Shown here in pieces: positions 31,034 through 37,414 of a stretch of 59,704 bases of DNA; within the stretch, counting starts at the first letter, position 1; every line of letters begins with the position of its first letter. This DNA comes from Promethearchaeota archaeon (GTDB lineage Archaea > Asgardarchaeota > Hermodarchaeia > Hermodarchaeales > Hermodarchaeaceae), in contig JBHLPR010000010.1 of the NCBI GenBank assembly GCA_048939245.1, forward strand, positions 1 through 59,704. The letters are read 5' to 3'. The position numbers and the translations under genes are program-made. A model generated the notes under the pieces. The model saw only the letters and a list, made by a program, of their open reading frames with translations. It did not search any database and had not been told where the DNA came from.

Positions 31034-31426
31034 CTATTTCTTGCTTCTTGATTTATGTAGGGCTGTGACGGCTTGTTTCCGTGTTTCCCGCTTGATCTCT
31101 TCAATTTGCTCAATTGCAGGGAGAATTGTGTCAACTAGTTCACTTTTTGCCTGGATTCCTTCGTGAGTGAGAAATGCCACGGCTTCACTCCGGCTTTTAA
31201 AAATTTCTAATCCAATTAATGCGTCGACTATCCGAAGGTCGCTGTCCCATAACCTTGTCATCACAATATTATCGCGGCGCTTTGCTATAGGTAAATCGCC
31301 TTTCATGAAAAGTTGTTTGAGCTCCTCCATTACCTCTTGTTTTAAGGCTGGAGTCATATCTAGGTCTTCGGCTGAGATTGAGTTCGATGGTGCTTTTCGT
31401 TTAGATTTCGATTTGGATGAAGTCAT
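31034..31426 (-). CDS. Ribbon-helix-helix family DNA-binding protein
   Basis: NIVMTRL (ribbon)...IVDALI....FKSRSEAV.FL..EGI. Confidence 0.65.
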   Translation of the reverse strand: MTSSKSKSKRKAPSNSISAEDLDMTPALKQEVMEELKQLFMKGDLPIAKRRDNIVMTRLWDSDLRIVDALIGLEIFKSRSEAVAFLTHEGIQAKSELVDTILPAIEQIEEIKRETRKQAVTALHKSRSKK

Positions 31427-31468: not shown

Positions 31469-31498
31469 GCGTTACGCCTCACCCCCTTTATGCGTTAC
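31469..31498. promoter_or_regulatory. Direct repeat GCGTTAC x2 upstream of the RHH gene
   Basis: GCGTTAC at 31469 and 31492, each preceded by TTTA(T). Confidence 0.3.
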
Positions 31499-31611
31499 AT
31501 CTTTGCAATTTATAAAGTGAGTTAGTGATTGGGGCAAGCTTATATACTGGGTTGAGGAACTTTACCAAACCTTAACAGTGTTAAGATGCGTGCCTCTGGA
31601 GCAAACTAGAA

Positions 31612-31866
31612 ATGTCAGAAAAAAACGAAGAAGTAAAAATCCATCACCGAATCGATGCACGAGGGCTTTATTGTCCAATCCCAGTATATAAGACACGACA
31701 AGCAGTTTTGGAAGCAAAACCCCAAGAAGTTGTTGAAATACTTGCTGATGATCCCGCTTCAGAAGAAGATATTCCACGTTGGGCGAAACGTACTGGAAAC
31801 AAGATTCTGAGCCTCGAACAACGTGACGATTACATACGCTTCTTAATTCAAAAGAAGGAACGGTGA
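31612..31866 (+). CDS. tusA: Sulfur carrier TusA/SirA family
   Basis: IDARGLYCPIP, LADDPAS.EDIPRW. Confidence 0.9.
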   Translation: MSEKNEEVKIHHRIDARGLYCPIPVYKTRQAVLEAKPQEVVEILADDPASEEDIPRWAKRTGNKILSLEQRDDYIRFLIQKKER

Positions 31867-31872
31867 AATTGA

Positions 31873-32235
31873 ATGGCGAAGCACATATTATATGTAGTAA
31901 CAAGCGGCACTGACGAACCTCATCGGCTATATGCTCCCTTCATTCTAGCGACTACAGCAAGAACCATGGACATGGATGCCACAATTTATTTCCTGATTAA
32001 AGGTGTGTCAGTGATGAAGAAGGGTGAAGCAGAAAAAATCAAGATGGGTAACTTTCCACCTCTCAACGAAATCATCGATCAGGCCATCGAAGCCGGAGTC
32101 AAACTCATGGCCTGCGATCAAAGCACACAAATGCTGGGAATCGAACGAGGTGGATATGTGAAAGAATGTGGCGTTGTTGGTTCCGCAACATTAAACGACC
32201 TTGCATTGGAAGCTGATGCGATTCTTACGTTCTAA
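31873..32235 (+). CDS. DsrE/F-like sulfur transferase
   Basis: APFILATTA, IYFLIKGV, GVKLMACDQS. Confidence 0.85.
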   Translation: MAKHILYVVTSGTDEPHRLYAPFILATTARTMDMDATIYFLIKGVSVMKKGEAEKIKMGNFPPLNEIIDQAIEAGVKLMACDQSTQMLGIERGGYVKECGVVGSATLNDLALEADAILTF

Positions 32236-32271
32236 TGGAGCTGAATCAAGAAATCGAGAGGGATAGGCAAA

Positions 32272-33483
32272 ATGACGGAACTAATAAATTTCAATCATAG
32301 TGCTGGCGTCCCAGTCGATCCAAGGGTCCTTGAAGCTATGGAGCCTTATTTCAAAACTTTCTATGGTAATCCATCATCCGTTCATCGAATTGGTCAACAA
32401 TCTGCTAAAGCAATGGAAAATGCACGAGTCCAGATTGCACAGCTGATCGGAGCTGGTTCGAAAGATAAAATAATTTTCACAAGTGGTTCCACAGAAGCTA
32501 ATAACCTCGCATTACAAGGCTACGCGAATCGGCAAAGCCGAAAAGGCAATCACATCATTATTTCCAAAGTAGAACATCTAAGCATTATCAATACTGTAAA
32601 ATTTCTCAGTAAACAAGGTTTTGAATATACTCAGATCCCCGTTGATAAATTCGGTATTGTTGATACGCAAGCCCTCAATGAAGCAATCACCAATAAGACC
32701 ATCCTAATCTCAATTCAGCACGCTAACAATGAAATGGGTACAATTCAACCATTAGCAGATATAGCCCAAATCGCAAACGATTCCAACGTTCCTCTCCATG
32801 TCGATGCAACAGCAAGTGTCGGGCAAATACCGGTCAATGTTTCAGATCTTGGGCTTTCGTTATTTACCCTCTCATCCAATGATTTGTATGGTCCAAAGGG
32901 TGTAGGCGCCTTATATGTAAAACAAGGCGTTGCGCTCCAACCAATTCTATTTGGAGGAGGCCAAGAATACGGAATCCGCTCAGGATCTGAAAATGTTCCA
33001 GGAATTGTTGGTTTGGGTGTAGCGGCTAAAATCGCAAGGAATGAAATTTCCGAGTATGCAAAACGCCTAACAAGTTTACGAGACGCTTTGATTAATGGAG
33101 TTACAAAATCAGTGGAGGAGAGTTTTCTGAACGGCCACCCTACCCAACGATTACCGAATAATGCCAATATTCGGTTTAAATACATCGAAGGAGAAGCAAT
33201 TACCTTGCACTTGAGTTTCCAAGGATTTTTGGTTGCTACCAGCTCTGCGTGTACCTCAAAGACCTTAGCTCCTTCACATTGTCTTCTGAGTATGGGTATA
33301 TCAGAAGCTGAAGCACATGGAGCACTCCAACTCACCTTAGGACGTGAAAATACACGAGCCCATGTTAATCGCTTTATAGAAGTATTGCCACCAATTATCG
33401 AAAAATTACGTGCTATGTCCCCTCTCTCAAAGGATGTCCCCTATGAACTCTTCGAAAATGAGGAACATGAACACCACCATTAA
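32272..33483 (+). CDS. iscS: IscS/NifS-family protein lacking the PLP-binding lysine
   Basis: FTSGSTEANN, NNEMGTIQP, HVDA, RSGSEN, SSACTS; SSND in place of SSHK/SAHK. Confidence 0.88.
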   Translation: MTELINFNHSAGVPVDPRVLEAMEPYFKTFYGNPSSVHRIGQQSAKAMENARVQIAQLIGAGSKDKIIFTSGSTEANNLALQGYANRQSRKGNHIIISKVEHLSIINTVKFLSKQGFEYTQIPVDKFGIVDTQALNEAITNKTILISIQHANNEMGTIQPLADIAQIANDSNVPLHVDATASVGQIPVNVSDLGLSLFTLSSNDLYGPKGVGALYVKQGVALQPILFGGGQEYGIRSGSENVPGIVGLGVAAKIARNEISEYAKRLTSLRDALINGVTKSVEESFLNGHPTQRLPNNANIRFKYIEGEAITLHLSFQGFLVATSSACTSKTLAPSHCLLSMGISEAEAHGALQLTLGRENTRAHVNRFIEVLPPIIEKLRAMSPLSKDVPYELFENEEHEHHH

Positions 33484-33508
33484 TAGCTCAAAAGGAGATG
33501 GATAGAAT

Positions 33509-33895
33509 ATGTACAGTGAAAAAGTTGTAGAGCATTTTACCAATCCCCGAAATATGGGAGAAATGGAAGATGCAGATGCTGTTGGAAAAGTCGGTAACCC
33601 AGTTTGTGGCGACCTCATCTGGATTTACATAAAGGTCAAAGATGATGTTATCACCGATGTTAAATTCAAGACTTTCGGGTGTGCTGCTGCCATTGCGACA
33701 TCGAGCATGGTTACAGAGCTCACAAAGGGTAAGACTCTCAAAGAGGCATATCAGATTACTCGGAATGATGTTGCGGATACACTAGAGGGCTTGCCTCCAA
33801 TTAAGATGCACTGCTCAAACCTTGCTGCAGATGGTCTACACAAAGCCATTGAAGAGTATCTTCAAAAAACCGGACGAACCATTGACGATCTTTAG
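33509..33895 (+). CDS. iscU: Fe-S scaffold IscU/NifU-N
   Basis: HFTNPRN, NPVCGD, FGCAAAIA, LPPIKMHC. Confidence 0.93.
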   Translation: MYSEKVVEHFTNPRNMGEMEDADAVGKVGNPVCGDLIWIYIKVKDDVITDVKFKTFGCAAAIATSSMVTELTKGKTLKEAYQITRNDVADTLEGLPPIKMHCSNLAADGLHKAIEEYLQKTGRTIDDL

Positions 33896-33906
33896 AAATA
33901 GTGTAC

Positions 33907-34293
33907 TTACTCCTCTGAGGATACGATGAGTTTTTCGATGAGGGTTTTAAAGGTCTCAGAAGAGAGGGCTCCTTTAATTAGGTAGTCTTTGGCTCCCATA
34001 TCCATTACCTCTTGAACCGTTTCATCGTCGTCGATAGCTGTTAAGGCAATGATGGCAATATCCGGATATTCGGTTGAGACTTGTTGAATAAGATCTGTCC
34101 CACTAATTTTAGGGAGTACCAAATCCACGAAGAAGATGTCAGGAGGATTAGCCTTGAGCTTTCTAAGGGCTTCTTCTCCATCTGCTGCTGTCTCGATGTC
34201 ATAATCACGAAGGAGTAGTTGTGCAGCTCGAAGGAAGGTTTCTGAGTCGTCTGCTAGCAGGATTTTTATTTCATGCGATTTCTTGGAAGCCAA
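33907..34293 (-). CDS. Single-domain response regulator (REC)
   Basis: LADD, VDLVLP (phosphoacceptor Asp), ALTA, GAKDYLIK. Confidence 0.92.
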   Translation of the reverse strand: MASKKSHEIKILLADDSETFLRAAQLLLRDYDIETAADGEEALRKLKANPPDIFFVDLVLPKISGTDLIQQVSTEYPDIAIIALTAIDDDETVQEVMDMGAKDYLIKGALSSETFKTLIEKLIVSSEE

Positions 34294-35737
34294 TTTGTGG
34301 TTTACCCTCCACGAGATGTGTGTAAAGACAGTATTGAGGAGTTGAAGGGTTGATGCCGCGAAATACTGTGACTCCTTCTTTTACTGCTATTTCAACGTGA
34401 ATATCAGCTAAGTCTGCAAGATATTGGTTAATTACCTCTGTACTACTATAGCCGATGGTCACAGCTAAGTTACTTTCGGTAGCAGTATCATTAGCTATGC
34501 GTGTAGCCCAGCGTGGAAGATCCGCGGGACCTAGCCAGGAGTGTAACCAACCAAAACCAACAACGCTGAGAAGGTCTTTGCATCCTTGGTTTCGGAGTTC
34601 TTCCAAAGCCATGCTCCACGCATTTTCTAGGTCAGAGCTTTCACGAAAAGCCACGGTTTTGTAATACGGTTCTCCCAATTCTCCTGTTGCACTAGAAACG
34701 CCTAAACTGGTAGCGGCACTAGCAAAGAGTCGTAACCGTGTATTTAGTTGATCAACGAAGCCGTATCGAAGTGCTGCGGCTTTCAGTCTTCGGAAACTGA
34801 GTTTGTTTGGAGGAACAATAATTACTCCGCTATCTTGACGAAGAAAGTTGGCAACTATGTTTAATACTAAACCATTGATTGCCTCATTGGCCACACCCTC
34901 AGAGACGTCAATGAAGAAGGTGCTTCCGCGACGAAATCCACCATATATCTCGTCAAGTTCTTTACTTCCGGATGAGAATCGACCACCAGTATGTGGGATG
35001 ACTTCGAAGCCAGAAACCCGGACAGCTTGTTCAGCGTCATATGGGTGTAAGATAGAGAATCGGTTTCCCCGAAGTGAAAACCCTCGCATCCCCTGATCGA
35101 TTGGGGTTCCTCGAAGTTTAATTAATTTAAGGCTTCGCCACATCCGTCCTTCTGTAAATTCTTTTGTTACGCATACAATGCCATCAACGATATGATCAAG
35201 GGGGGACTCGCTGATGCCTTCAACGACTAGAATAATTTTGCCTGACAGGATTCTTCCTAAGTTGGTTAGAGCACTGGTTAAGCGTTGGGGGTCTGCTTGG
35301 GCTGCTTCAATGATGGCGTCAAATGAGTCGATGATACAAATAGGGGAATTTAGATTCCGAAGGCGATCATTAACAGCACTGATGAAAGTTAATTCGTCAG
35401 AATATACCATACGATTTTGAGAAGGCTCTCCAGCTTCCAAAGGAGATTCTGGAACTCCCATCAATGATGGGGTTGCATCAACAATTTGACCCTCAGGAAG
35501 CATTTCAAAAGCCCAAGCGAATTGTGATTTAAGACTTGTATTGGAAACACGGGATGACAGATAGATGAAATTCTCTGAACTGAATTTGTCAGGAAGCCTT
35601 TGTTCAAGCTCCTCTAATAGAGATAAGGCAAAGGTCGATTTACCAGTTCCCGACCTTCCTTTAACAAGTAAGCTTTGTCCTTGTTCTTGTTTAAAGAATT
35701 CAATGAGTTCTTGTGGGAGGGTCACCTGTTCTTGCAC
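34271..35737 (-). CDS. GvpD-like two-domain KaiC/RecA-superfamily ATPase
   Basis: LPQELIEFF, GRSGTGKS, IDSFDA, LDHIVDGIV, KLRG; second domain SSGSKELD..YGGF lacks a Walker A. Confidence 0.8.
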   Translation of the reverse strand: MQEQVTLPQELIEFFKQEQGQSLLVKGRSGTGKSTFALSLLEELEQRLPDKFSSENFIYLSSRVSNTSLKSQFAWAFEMLPEGQIVDATPSLMGVPESPLEAGEPSQNRMVYSDELTFISAVNDRLRNLNSPICIIDSFDAIIEAAQADPQRLTSALTNLGRILSGKIILVVEGISESPLDHIVDGIVCVTKEFTEGRMWRSLKLIKLRGTPIDQGMRGFSLRGNRFSILHPYDAEQAVRVSGFEVIPHTGGRFSSGSKELDEIYGGFRRGSTFFIDVSEGVANEAINGLVLNIVANFLRQDSGVIIVPPNKLSFRRLKAAALRYGFVDQLNTRLRLFASAATSLGVSSATGELGEPYYKTVAFRESSDLENAWSMALEELRNQGCKDLLSVVGFGWLHSWLGPADLPRWATRIANDTATESNLAVTIGYSSTEVINQYLADLADIHVEIAVKEGVTVFRGINPSTPQYCLYTHLVEGKPQIGFQEIA

Positions 35738-35749
35738 CTTCTAAGCGAT

Positions 35750-36304
35750 TTACGTTATCACCTTCGCAGAGTGATCTAGAAGTAACTTCGATATTGTCTG
35801 GAAAAGTTCTTTTATATTGGTTCCAGCTTTTGCGGAAGTTTCTAAATAGCCAAGCATGTTCAGGCTCTTCCTTAATTTTTCTGCTGAGCTAGGTGTGACT
35901 ACCCTATCTTCATTCAAGTCCGCTTTATTACCAACTAGAAAGAGAAGAACCTCGGGTGCACCTTGTCGTACATCCTTTACCCATTCTTTGACACAATCTA
36001 GTGTGTCTTCTCTTGTTAAATCAAATACAACAACAGCGAAATCAGTTCCAAAGAGATATTGGACCCGAACACGCTGAAATGAGGTTTGACCTGCCAAGTC
36101 CCATACCTGAAGTGAAATATCTGAACCGCTTACAGAAGTCTTGAATGTAGAAATGGCAGCCCCAAGCGTTGCCTTGTAGCCTTCATCAAAAGAATTCGTC
36201 ATGTAACGTTTTATGATTGAGGTCTTTCCAACAGCATAATCCCCAATCACTGAAACTTTGAACATGTATCGGCCACTTTTGGGCACCATTCCTTTTGTCA
36301 CCAT
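35750..36304 (-). CDS. Rab-like small GTPase
   Basis: G1 GDYAVGKTS, G2 YKATLG, G3 WDLAGQ, G4 NKAD, G5 ETSAK; no C-terminal Cys. Confidence 0.92.
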   Translation of the reverse strand: MVTKGMVPKSGRYMFKVSVIGDYAVGKTSIIKRYMTNSFDEGYKATLGAAISTFKTSVSGSDISLQVWDLAGQTSFQRVRVQYLFGTDFAVVVFDLTREDTLDCVKEWVKDVRQGAPEVLLFLVGNKADLNEDRVVTPSSAEKLRKSLNMLGYLETSAKAGTNIKELFQTISKLLLDHSAKVIT

Positions 36305-36393
36305 ACCCAGATTTTTTCCCTCAGATGATTATCTCATATTGATGAAATTTAAGCTCGACGGTATTGATACGATTTCATTCTCCTAGTTTGTGT

Positions 36394-37134
36394 TTATTGA
36401 ATCGGGGGTAGATCCGAGACCTTAATGCCTTCATCACCTATTATGAGCAGAAGGGGATTCATTTGATGGCTTGTCCCTCGCATTTTTCCAATCTCGATAG
36501 TCCTGATGCGTATAGTTCCTTGGCTCATCAGCTTCAACATTATTACGCCATCCATGAGAAAGCCTTCGACATCAAAGCGACCAACGCTGTCATCTGAGGG
36601 ACTTTCTACTGCGACTAAGCAAGTGGCTTGACTCATACGCAGAGATCGAACCATATTAAGCAGGTCGTGACGAATACGAAACAAATCCTTGTGCTGGAGA
36701 GTAAGTGTAGAAATTGAGTCGATGGCTACGCGCTTTGCTTTGATTCGTCGAATTTCTCGATGAATCAATGATAGAAGGGATTCCATGGTAAATTCCTCTC
36801 GACCTAGCACTGGATGTTCTGGTTTCAGGACCACACGTTCATTCTGTATCATGGGTGAAGCATCAACCATGGCAATTAGACCTTTATCAATGAGATTTTG
36901 TAGATCCCAACCAAATTGCTTCATATTACGGATAGTTGAAGGAATGGATTCTTCCATCGATACTAATACGCCTGGTTCTTTGAATTTTTTAGCCCCTTCA
37001 ACGAGAAATTGGTTCATTAGAATTGATTTCCCTGTTCCAGGGCCACCACTAACTAGAATTACTGCACCCTCGGGAAAGCCACCATGTAATGCTTCGTCTA
37101 GACCTGGAATACCGGATTTTGTCTTTTCAGCCAC
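36394..37134 (-). CDS. Single-domain KaiC/RAD55-family ATPase
   Basis: SGIPGLD...GGFP, GGPGTGKS, MEE, IDSIS, DGVIML, KMRGT.H; GTG start at 37134. Confidence 0.9.
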   Translation of the reverse strand: MAEKTKSGIPGLDEALHGGFPEGAVILVSGGPGTGKSILMNQFLVEGAKKFKEPGVLVSMEESIPSTIRNMKQFGWDLQNLIDKGLIAMVDASPMIQNERVVLKPEHPVLGREEFTMESLLSLIHREIRRIKAKRVAIDSISTLTLQHKDLFRIRHDLLNMVRSLRMSQATCLVAVESPSDDSVGRFDVEGFLMDGVIMLKLMSQGTIRIRTIEIGKMRGTSHQMNPLLLIIGDEGIKVSDLPPIQ

Positions 37135-37414
37135 ACTAATCCCCCGATTAGATGGTCTCCTAATATTCAAGTACCAAATTGATGATTTAAGAGGTTTGCG
37201 TATCTTCTCAAACTAATTCCCTACCTCTACAGACTTCCCAAAAGCTTCTGAGTTAAATATCGGGTTTGTTTTGGGTCCCAAGAATCAACACATGCTGAGT
37301 CATATATTATCACGCTGACCCCAAACATATCAGAAGTATCAATACGCTAGCAAGTACAATTATGGGGTGATGTCATTACTTAGTTAAATTCTAAAAGAAT
37401 TCGTATTCAAAATG

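Follow-up and report, generated by a model that had tools for sequence, protein, structure and literature searches.

How can an IscS protein that lacks the lysine of the pyridoxal 5'-phosphate (PLP) site take part in iron–sulfur (Fe–S) cluster assembly, and which sulfur donor might serve it? The question is raised by four genes in a 59,704-nucleotide stretch of DNA (the window) from a Promethearchaeota archaeon of the Hermodarchaeaceae, an Asgard archaeon whose genome (G000) is 2.5 Mb in size and 88% complete. The genes tusA, a DsrE3-like gene, iscS, and iscU are arranged in series on the + strand at positions 31612–33895 and are separated by intergenic gaps of 6, 36, and 25 nt. The four genes are as follows.

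31612..31866, + strand: tusA, 84 aa; PF01206 at 89.9 bits (cut-off 28.6); Cys21 in CPIP.
31873..32235, + strand: DsrE3-like sulfur transferase, 120 aa; PF02635 at 66.4 bits; Cys81 in ACDQS.
32272..33483, + strand: Lys-less IscS/MisS, 403 aa; Aminotran_5 (PF00266) at 244.8 bits; Asp204 and Cys327.
33509..33895, + strand: iscU scaffold, 128 aa; NifU_N at 162.8 bits; TIGR03419 at 205.8 bits (cut-off 187.9).

Co-transcription of these genes, proposed in the first-pass annotation of this DNA, is upheld, and a single operon encoding a complete Fe–S assembly module is the best explanation for the arrangement. The ligand residues of the scaffold (Cys33, Asp35, Cys58, His101, and Cys102) are all in place, and these positions are 98–100% conserved in a set of 140 sequences.

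The IscS motif reads LSSNDLYGPKG. Asp204 (GAT, 32881–32883) is found at the position of the PLP lysine, and Asn203 is found in place of the usual His. In the HMMER alignment, Asp204 is paired with the Asp of Archaeoglobus fulgidus IscS2 (4eb5_A, SSNDIYGPKG) and with the Lys of the engineered D199K variant (4r5f_A). The inactive A. fulgidus IscS2 (4EB5/4EB7/4HVK) is also the best solved-structure match, with an E-value of 1.8e-137 over residues 7–386. The best NCBIfam models are NifS (TIGR03402, 462 bits) and IscS (TIGR02006, 382 bits); each score lies under the equivalog cut-off, as expected for a divergent subgroup. The loop cysteine, Cys327, is kept in the sequence SSACTS, and all of the listed Lys-less sequences likewise have a Cys there. 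Among the 120 nearest database homologues, with identities down to 54%, SS[NS]D was read in all 118 sequences with a readable motif, the remaining two being truncated or unmatched. The first-pass annotation had described SSNDLYGPKG as carrying Asp for Lys, and no lysine is found at the PLP position. The cysteine motifs that it listed (SSACTS, CPIP, and ACDQS) are all present, and its comparison with the A. fulgidus enzyme is upheld by the structure match, the shared motif, and the inactivity reported in a review (PMC8918507). Judged from its sequence, the protein is a Lys-less IscS of the A. fulgidus type, which is an already known kind of enzyme.

The A. fulgidus IscS has Asp199, is found with pyridoxamine 5'-phosphate (PMP) bound, is devoid of desulfurase activity, and may do no more than contribute a Cys to the ligands of the [2Fe-2S] cluster on IscU (PMC8918507). 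IscS1 of Methanosarcina acetivorans is likewise without the lysine (PMC7585200). The sulfur source for the A. fulgidus IscS–IscU pair is described as an open question, with sulfide cited as a hypothesis (PMC8918507).

Five positions split the Lys-less from the Lys-type IscS proteins in an alignment of 177 sequences: G73A, A104S, Q181A, H203N, and K204D, each conserved to at least 90% on both sides. The source IscS has Ser at position 73, unlike the usual Ala of the clade. K204 is the Schiff-base lysine, and positions 73, 104, 181, and 203 are placed within the PLP pocket or close by, as judged from IscS structures. The joint shift of the five positions points to a pocket that was remodelled in concert. 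In a maximum-likelihood tree, which did not include the A. fulgidus sequence itself, 79 of the 80 Lys-less IscS proteins form a single clade with a support of 1.0. The lone exception, L125, carries Thr in place of the lysine, with the signature APHHT, and is located on a long branch among the Lys-type sequences. A sequencing error or a pseudogene was rejected as the origin of Asp204: the change from Lys to Asp takes two base changes, the frame is intact, the motif is kept in 79 clade members, and four more pocket residues change together with it.

The IscS also has a natural acidic, His-rich C-terminal tail, ELFENEEHEHHH (33442–33483), which is conserved in genus g1 and recurs in the second iscS copies of family f3 (L134 and L135). 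At least three His among the last 15 residues are found in 13 of 80 Lys-less proteins versus 2 of 97 Lys-type proteins. The tail may bind metal, possibly iron.

The distribution of the two carrier genes was examined over IscS loci from three sources: a scan of genome contigs, 301 genomes of the source phylum (plus extra regions), and 201 genomes of a second archaeal phylum, the last sample being centred on a Methanomassiliicoccus genome. Stop-to-stop open reading frames were scanned with hidden Markov models iterated from the four operon proteins, and 177 distinct IscS proteins were counted. Linkage was then counted over the distinct IscS sequences whose upstream DNA spans 800 bp or more, for a tusA gene located directly upstream on the same strand. 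For the Lys-less IscS (n = 75), tusA is upstream in 68, dsrE is present as well in 47 of these, and iscU is downstream in 64. For the Lys-type IscS (n = 88), tusA is upstream in 0, dsrE in 0, and iscU is downstream in 68. The Lys-type set includes seven paralogues within the same Asgard genomes and 16 genes from the second phylum. One further locus, L204, also has tusA, which was overlooked by the distance rule. An unpublished genome, G304, holds Lys-type IscS loci only (L052/L123 and the fragment L126) and bears on no conclusion.

The linkage to tusA is found in eight Asgard families (f1, f3, f6, f9, f12, f18, f23, and f30). In the second phylum, a carrier gene is present at 11 of 13 Lys-less IscS genes versus none of the 16 of the Lys type. 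L125, the separate lineage with the K-to-T change, which comes from genome G302 and was counted within the Asgard sample, is also placed behind tusA-dsrE. The pattern of TusA/DsrE linkage over families and phyla is clear, and the test for co-occurrence of the K-to-D IscS with tusA/dsrE that the first-pass annotation had proposed is strongly positive. Chance adjacency was rejected (Fisher p = 2.5e-38 for the Lys-less versus the Lys-type counts, a significance that is overstated since the genomes are related). No description of a linkage between Lys-less IscS and tusA/dsrE was found in the full-text literature that could be searched, and an earlier description may exist.

Several variants of the locus were observed in the same sample. 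At the f12 loci L104, L105, and L110, tusA-dsrE-iscS(Asp) is followed by a distant class-V aminotransferase that keeps the lysine (FSIHKMCGPSG), not by iscU. In families f9, f6, and f23 (L111:2680-3477 and many other loci), an IscU of ~265 aa is encoded behind the Lys-less IscS. This protein is a fusion with a C-terminal NAD-binding segment of the pyridine-nucleotide-disulfide-oxidoreductase type (PF00070, E 2.8e-5; NAD, nicotinamide adenine dinucleotide), and the segment may be a built-in electron input. At L146:3665-5248 (f15), the scaffold domain of IscU is interrupted by an intein with a LAGLIDADG homing endonuclease. Two taxon labels are at odds with genome kinship: a contig titled Odinarchaeota bears an operon 78% identical to the source operon (L011), and a genome titled Bathyarchaeia (L016/G302) falls in the sample of the source phylum.

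The carrier proteins themselves look functional from their sequences. All 70 linked TusA sequences have Cys21, and all 50 linked DsrE sequences have Cys81. Among the PDB relatives of TusA is its E. coli counterpart bound to IscS (3lvj_C). The nearest solved structure for DsrE is 3MC3 (SSO1125; E 5.4e-17), and Cys81 falls on the conserved Cys of 3MC3. The NCBIfam DsrE2 model scores the protein at 39 bits against a cut-off of 210, and the label DsrE3-like rests on the nearest structure, 3MC3, which is treated as DsrE3A (PMC11094781). Proteins of the DsrE3 type take sulfur from polysulfide and donate it preferentially to TusA (PMC11094781). In the docked E. coli TusA–IscS pair, Cys19 of TusA lies ~4 Å from Cys328 of IscS (PMC2854127), which sets a structural precedent for TusA meeting the loop of IscS. 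The genome holds another DsrE-family match, at G000:C35:12139-12441, which has an in-frame TAG inside it.

A flavoprotein resembling coenzyme A (CoA) disulfide reductase, with a C-terminal rhodanese domain, adjoins the operon at seven loci (L139:1-1602 and six others; some f9 genomes). Enzymes of this CoA-disulfide-reductase–rhodanese architecture act as persulfide reductases that use reduced NAD or NAD phosphate, NAD(P)H. The source genome has only a rhodanese-free version of the CoA-disulfide-reductase-like protein (31% identity), at C70:136589-137917.

Other Fe–S assembly genes of the source lineage were also examined. No SufB/D was found in G000, in 18 of the 19 genomes of its family, or in any of the six other family genomes with a completeness of 85% or more. 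SufB/D is present in most other Asgard families. It is likewise missing from the f12 genomes, two of them closed. The iscU of the operon is the single NifU_N gene found in G000. The scaffold search covered the ISC and SUF types. Since SufB/D was not found and IscU is single, the operon holds the only ISC/SUF-type scaffold found in the lineage and must be the working system of the lineage. A role as the housekeeping Fe–S system of the source family is the best explanation.

Sulfur delivery by TusA and DsrE to the Lys-less IscS is the best-supported reading of the clade-wide linkage, from which we infer both the transfer and its direction. In this mechanism, IscU would be the scaffold, and the active site of the Lys-less IscS could not itself draw sulfur from cysteine. 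The IscS would instead be a structural partner of IscU, with the loop Cys327 as a persulfide acceptor, a cluster ligand, or both. A protein-bound persulfide would be relayed from Cys81 of the DsrE3-like protein to Cys21 of TusA and from there to Cys327 of IscS or to IscU. Trans-persulfuration is chemically reversible, and the flow would be opposite to the direction from IscS to TusA in E. coli. The ultimate source could be environmental sulfane sulfur (polysulfide or thiosulfate) or a separate SufS-type desulfurase. With that source left open, it is judged modestly probable that the relay feeds sulfur into IscS–IscU.

Several points weigh against this relay. Seven Lys-less loci with ample upstream DNA are without tusA and dsrE (families f15 and f17, the second copy L112, and L197), and the carriers are thus not obligatory. 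The compared genomes are kin, and the linkage counts therefore overstate the number of independent events. The residues specific to the Lys-less IscS clade are R18, R87, S202, R301, T331, and E347, together with the pocket set; no conservation specific to this clade was found on the helix to which TusA binds in the E. coli protein. In addition, a supply by free sulfide, for which no carriers would be needed, was suggested by Pagnier et al. (2015; cited in PMC8918507).

The most far-reaching form of the relay would be a self-contained, cysteine-free synthesis of clusters, in which tusA-dsrE-iscS(Asp)-iscU passes sulfane sulfur through DsrE3 and TusA onto a pseudo-desulfurase–scaffold pair, as the sole housekeeping Fe–S machinery of some Asgard lineages. 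This form is possible and is put forward tentatively. The cysteine independence suggested in the first-pass annotation is not established, because a lysine-containing SufS-type desulfurase is encoded in the genome, with relatives in 17 of the 19 family genomes, and could load TusA. The gene is found at G000:C70:51776-53047 with its PLP lysine (SFSGHK) and its cysteine (RAGHHCC) intact, and its presence makes cysteine possible as the ultimate source of sulfur. The same relay might then be fed by cysteine, with the SufS-type enzyme loading TusA/DsrE, and the system would be a desulfurase and a scaffold that have been split and not one that is independent of cysteine. No SufE/CsdE partner, SufB/D, or second IscU was found in the genome as the usual acceptor for SufS, which agrees with such a supply. 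The position of the gene does not: it is located on another contig, it is unlinked to the operon at all loci examined, and it adjoins an E1 gene of the MoeB/ThiF/UbaA type, an arrangement that resembles CsdA–TcdA or SAMP activation and suggests dedicated thiolation. Feeding of the relay from cysteine is considered rather doubtful.

Other explanations dispense with a flow of sulfur from the carriers into the scaffold. Free sulfide could be used directly by IscS–IscU, as proposed for A. fulgidus, while TusA and DsrE export sulfur from the IscS Cys327–IscU complex to tRNA or to molybdenum cofactor thiolation, or buffer sulfane sulfur. Fe–S assembly that depends on sulfide has been documented in archaeal SMS systems (PMC12192291, PMC7585200), the flow in E. 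coli is from IscS to TusA and on to a DsrE-family complex, and the TusA of the operon is the sole TusA-family gene found in G000. The Lys-less IscS, however, has no known route to make a persulfide for handing on. No DsrC/TusE homologue (PF04358) was matched in G000, at 88% completeness, and a TusA that merely needs an IscS donor should adjoin the Lys-type IscS, which it does in none of the 88 cases. Direct use of sulfide with export by the carriers is regarded as unlikely. TusA and DsrE might alternatively act as regulators or assembly chaperones of IscS–IscU that carry no sulfur, for example by rivalling IscU for binding; E. coli TusA is described as modulating IscS activity and competing with IscU for IscS (PMC11302665, PMC11446229). 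The invariance of the persulfide cysteines in every linked TusA and DsrE points to conserved thiol chemistry instead, and a purely regulatory role appears very unlikely. The least probable explanation is that the Lys-less IscS still acts on some other substrate with the help of PLP or PMP and that this activity yields the sulfur. Binding of PMP or PLP persists in the A. fulgidus protein (PMC8918507), and the pocket shows conserved remodelling and no decay. The lysine that serves as Schiff base and general base is gone, however, together with Gln181 and His203, and the A. fulgidus wild type is inactive on cysteine, with both the wild type and D199K binding PMP (PMC8918507). Such a residual activity is considered highly improbable.

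The relay into IscS–IscU was compared with known systems. The A. fulgidus IscS2–IscU pair shares the type I fold, the Asp of SSND, the retained loop Cys, and, from the next gene downstream, an IscU with Cys3/Asp/His ligands. That pair is described as a two-protein system whose sulfur source is unknown (PMC8918507, PMC7585200), whereas the source operon adds tusA and the DsrE3-like gene, and the source IscS has an acidic His-rich tail, unlike A. fulgidus IscS2. This distinction draws on the published descriptions of the A. fulgidus pair. The MIS system (MisS–MisU) is similar as a pair of IscS-like and IscU-like proteins without IscA, HscAB, ferredoxin, or IscR. MIS consists of two components with a working cysteine desulfurase (PMC12192291, PMC13066941), while the source operon combines a Lys-less desulfurase with two carriers and falls outside MIS. 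It also falls outside the canonical ISC type, in which an active IscS is joined by IscA, HscBA, ferredoxin, and IscR, with an IscS without the Lys and an operon of tusA, dsrE, iscS, and iscU only, accessory genes being judged at the locus.

The same three protein families occur in the E. coli relay from IscS through TusA to TusBCD for the 2-thiouridine of tRNA, for which the TusA–IscS complex is known (3LVJ). The E. coli relay employs an active IscS donor, the TusBCD heterohexamer, and TusE; the source system has a Lys-less IscS and a single DsrE3-like gene, no TusE/DsrC was found, and the operon ends in IscU. The DsrE3–TusA cascades of sulfur oxidisers (sHdr; Metallosphaera and Hyphomicrobium) resemble the operon in the pair of a DsrE3-type protein and TusA, in the conserved cysteines, and in the transfer from DsrE3 to TusA that is preferred in vitro. 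Those cascades feed dissimilatory sulfur oxidation, whereas the source operon is without shdr or dsr genes and its sink would be a biosynthetic Fe–S scaffold.

The region upstream of tusA contains the following features.

31034..31426, − strand: divergent 130-aa gene; candidate ribbon-helix-helix-like regulator of the operon.
31469..31498, + strand: pair of direct GCGTTAC repeats between the divergent genes; candidate operator.
31538..31547, + strand: TATA-box-like element GCTTATATAC, ~65 nt upstream of the tusA ATG.
31571..31585, + strand: perfect palindrome CTTAACAGTGTTAAG, past the TATA element and ahead of the tusA start.

The divergent gene is located 185 nt upstream of tusA and is present in every locus of the source family. 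Residues 43–125 of its product are nearly invariant across species whose IscS identity is only 67–79%. The pattern is that of a strand (IVMTR), helices at 61–72 and 79–88, and then a long helix. No significant Pfam or NCBIfam match was obtained, and the AlphaFold2 model is poor (predicted local distance difference test score, pLDDT, of 61). From this pattern, with which the secondary structure of the model agrees, we infer a putative ribbon-helix-helix followed by a long helix.

The GCGTTAC repeats are conserved across 12 distinct aligned intergenic sequences of genus g1, and the spaced pair occurs once in the genome. The TATA-like element is kept as CTTATATA or CTTAAATA at all aligned family loci and is a putative archaeal promoter. 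The half-site CTTAACA of the palindrome is found in 15 of 15 aligned family loci; the full palindrome is present in most loci of genus g1, and the three g2 loci have CTTAACAATTGTTAAG. The palindrome starts ~28 nt past the TATA element, close to where transcription is expected to begin, and is thus a candidate repressor site. The copy at this locus is the sole exact one in the 2.5-Mb genome. A wider palindrome regulon was rejected, since only two sites with one mismatch were found elsewhere (one ahead of a helicase gene close to sufS, the other near a DUF362 gene), which is about the number expected by chance.

Downstream of the operon, a convergent response-regulator gene ends 11 nt past iscU. 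It belongs to a convergent group directly downstream (33907-37170, − strand) that encodes the response regulator, a GvpD/KaiC-like ATPase, a Rab-like small GTPase, and a further KaiC/RAD55-like ATPase. The response regulator and the GvpD-like gene hold the same downstream position in loci of the source family.

The near-exclusive linkage of tusA and dsrE to the Lys-less iscS names candidate sulfur donors for the Lys-less IscS–IscU. The routing of sulfide or sulfane sulfur into Fe–S assembly in anaerobic archaea is an unanswered question (PMC7585200, PMC13066941). The finding bears on the Fe–S machinery of the archaeal relatives of eukaryotes and on ISC-type systems before or without cysteine desulfuration. 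If cluster synthesis by this operon is indeed free of cysteine, it would represent a distinct sulfur input beside the desulfurase-driven ISC, NIF, and SUF systems and the sulfide-driven SMS system.

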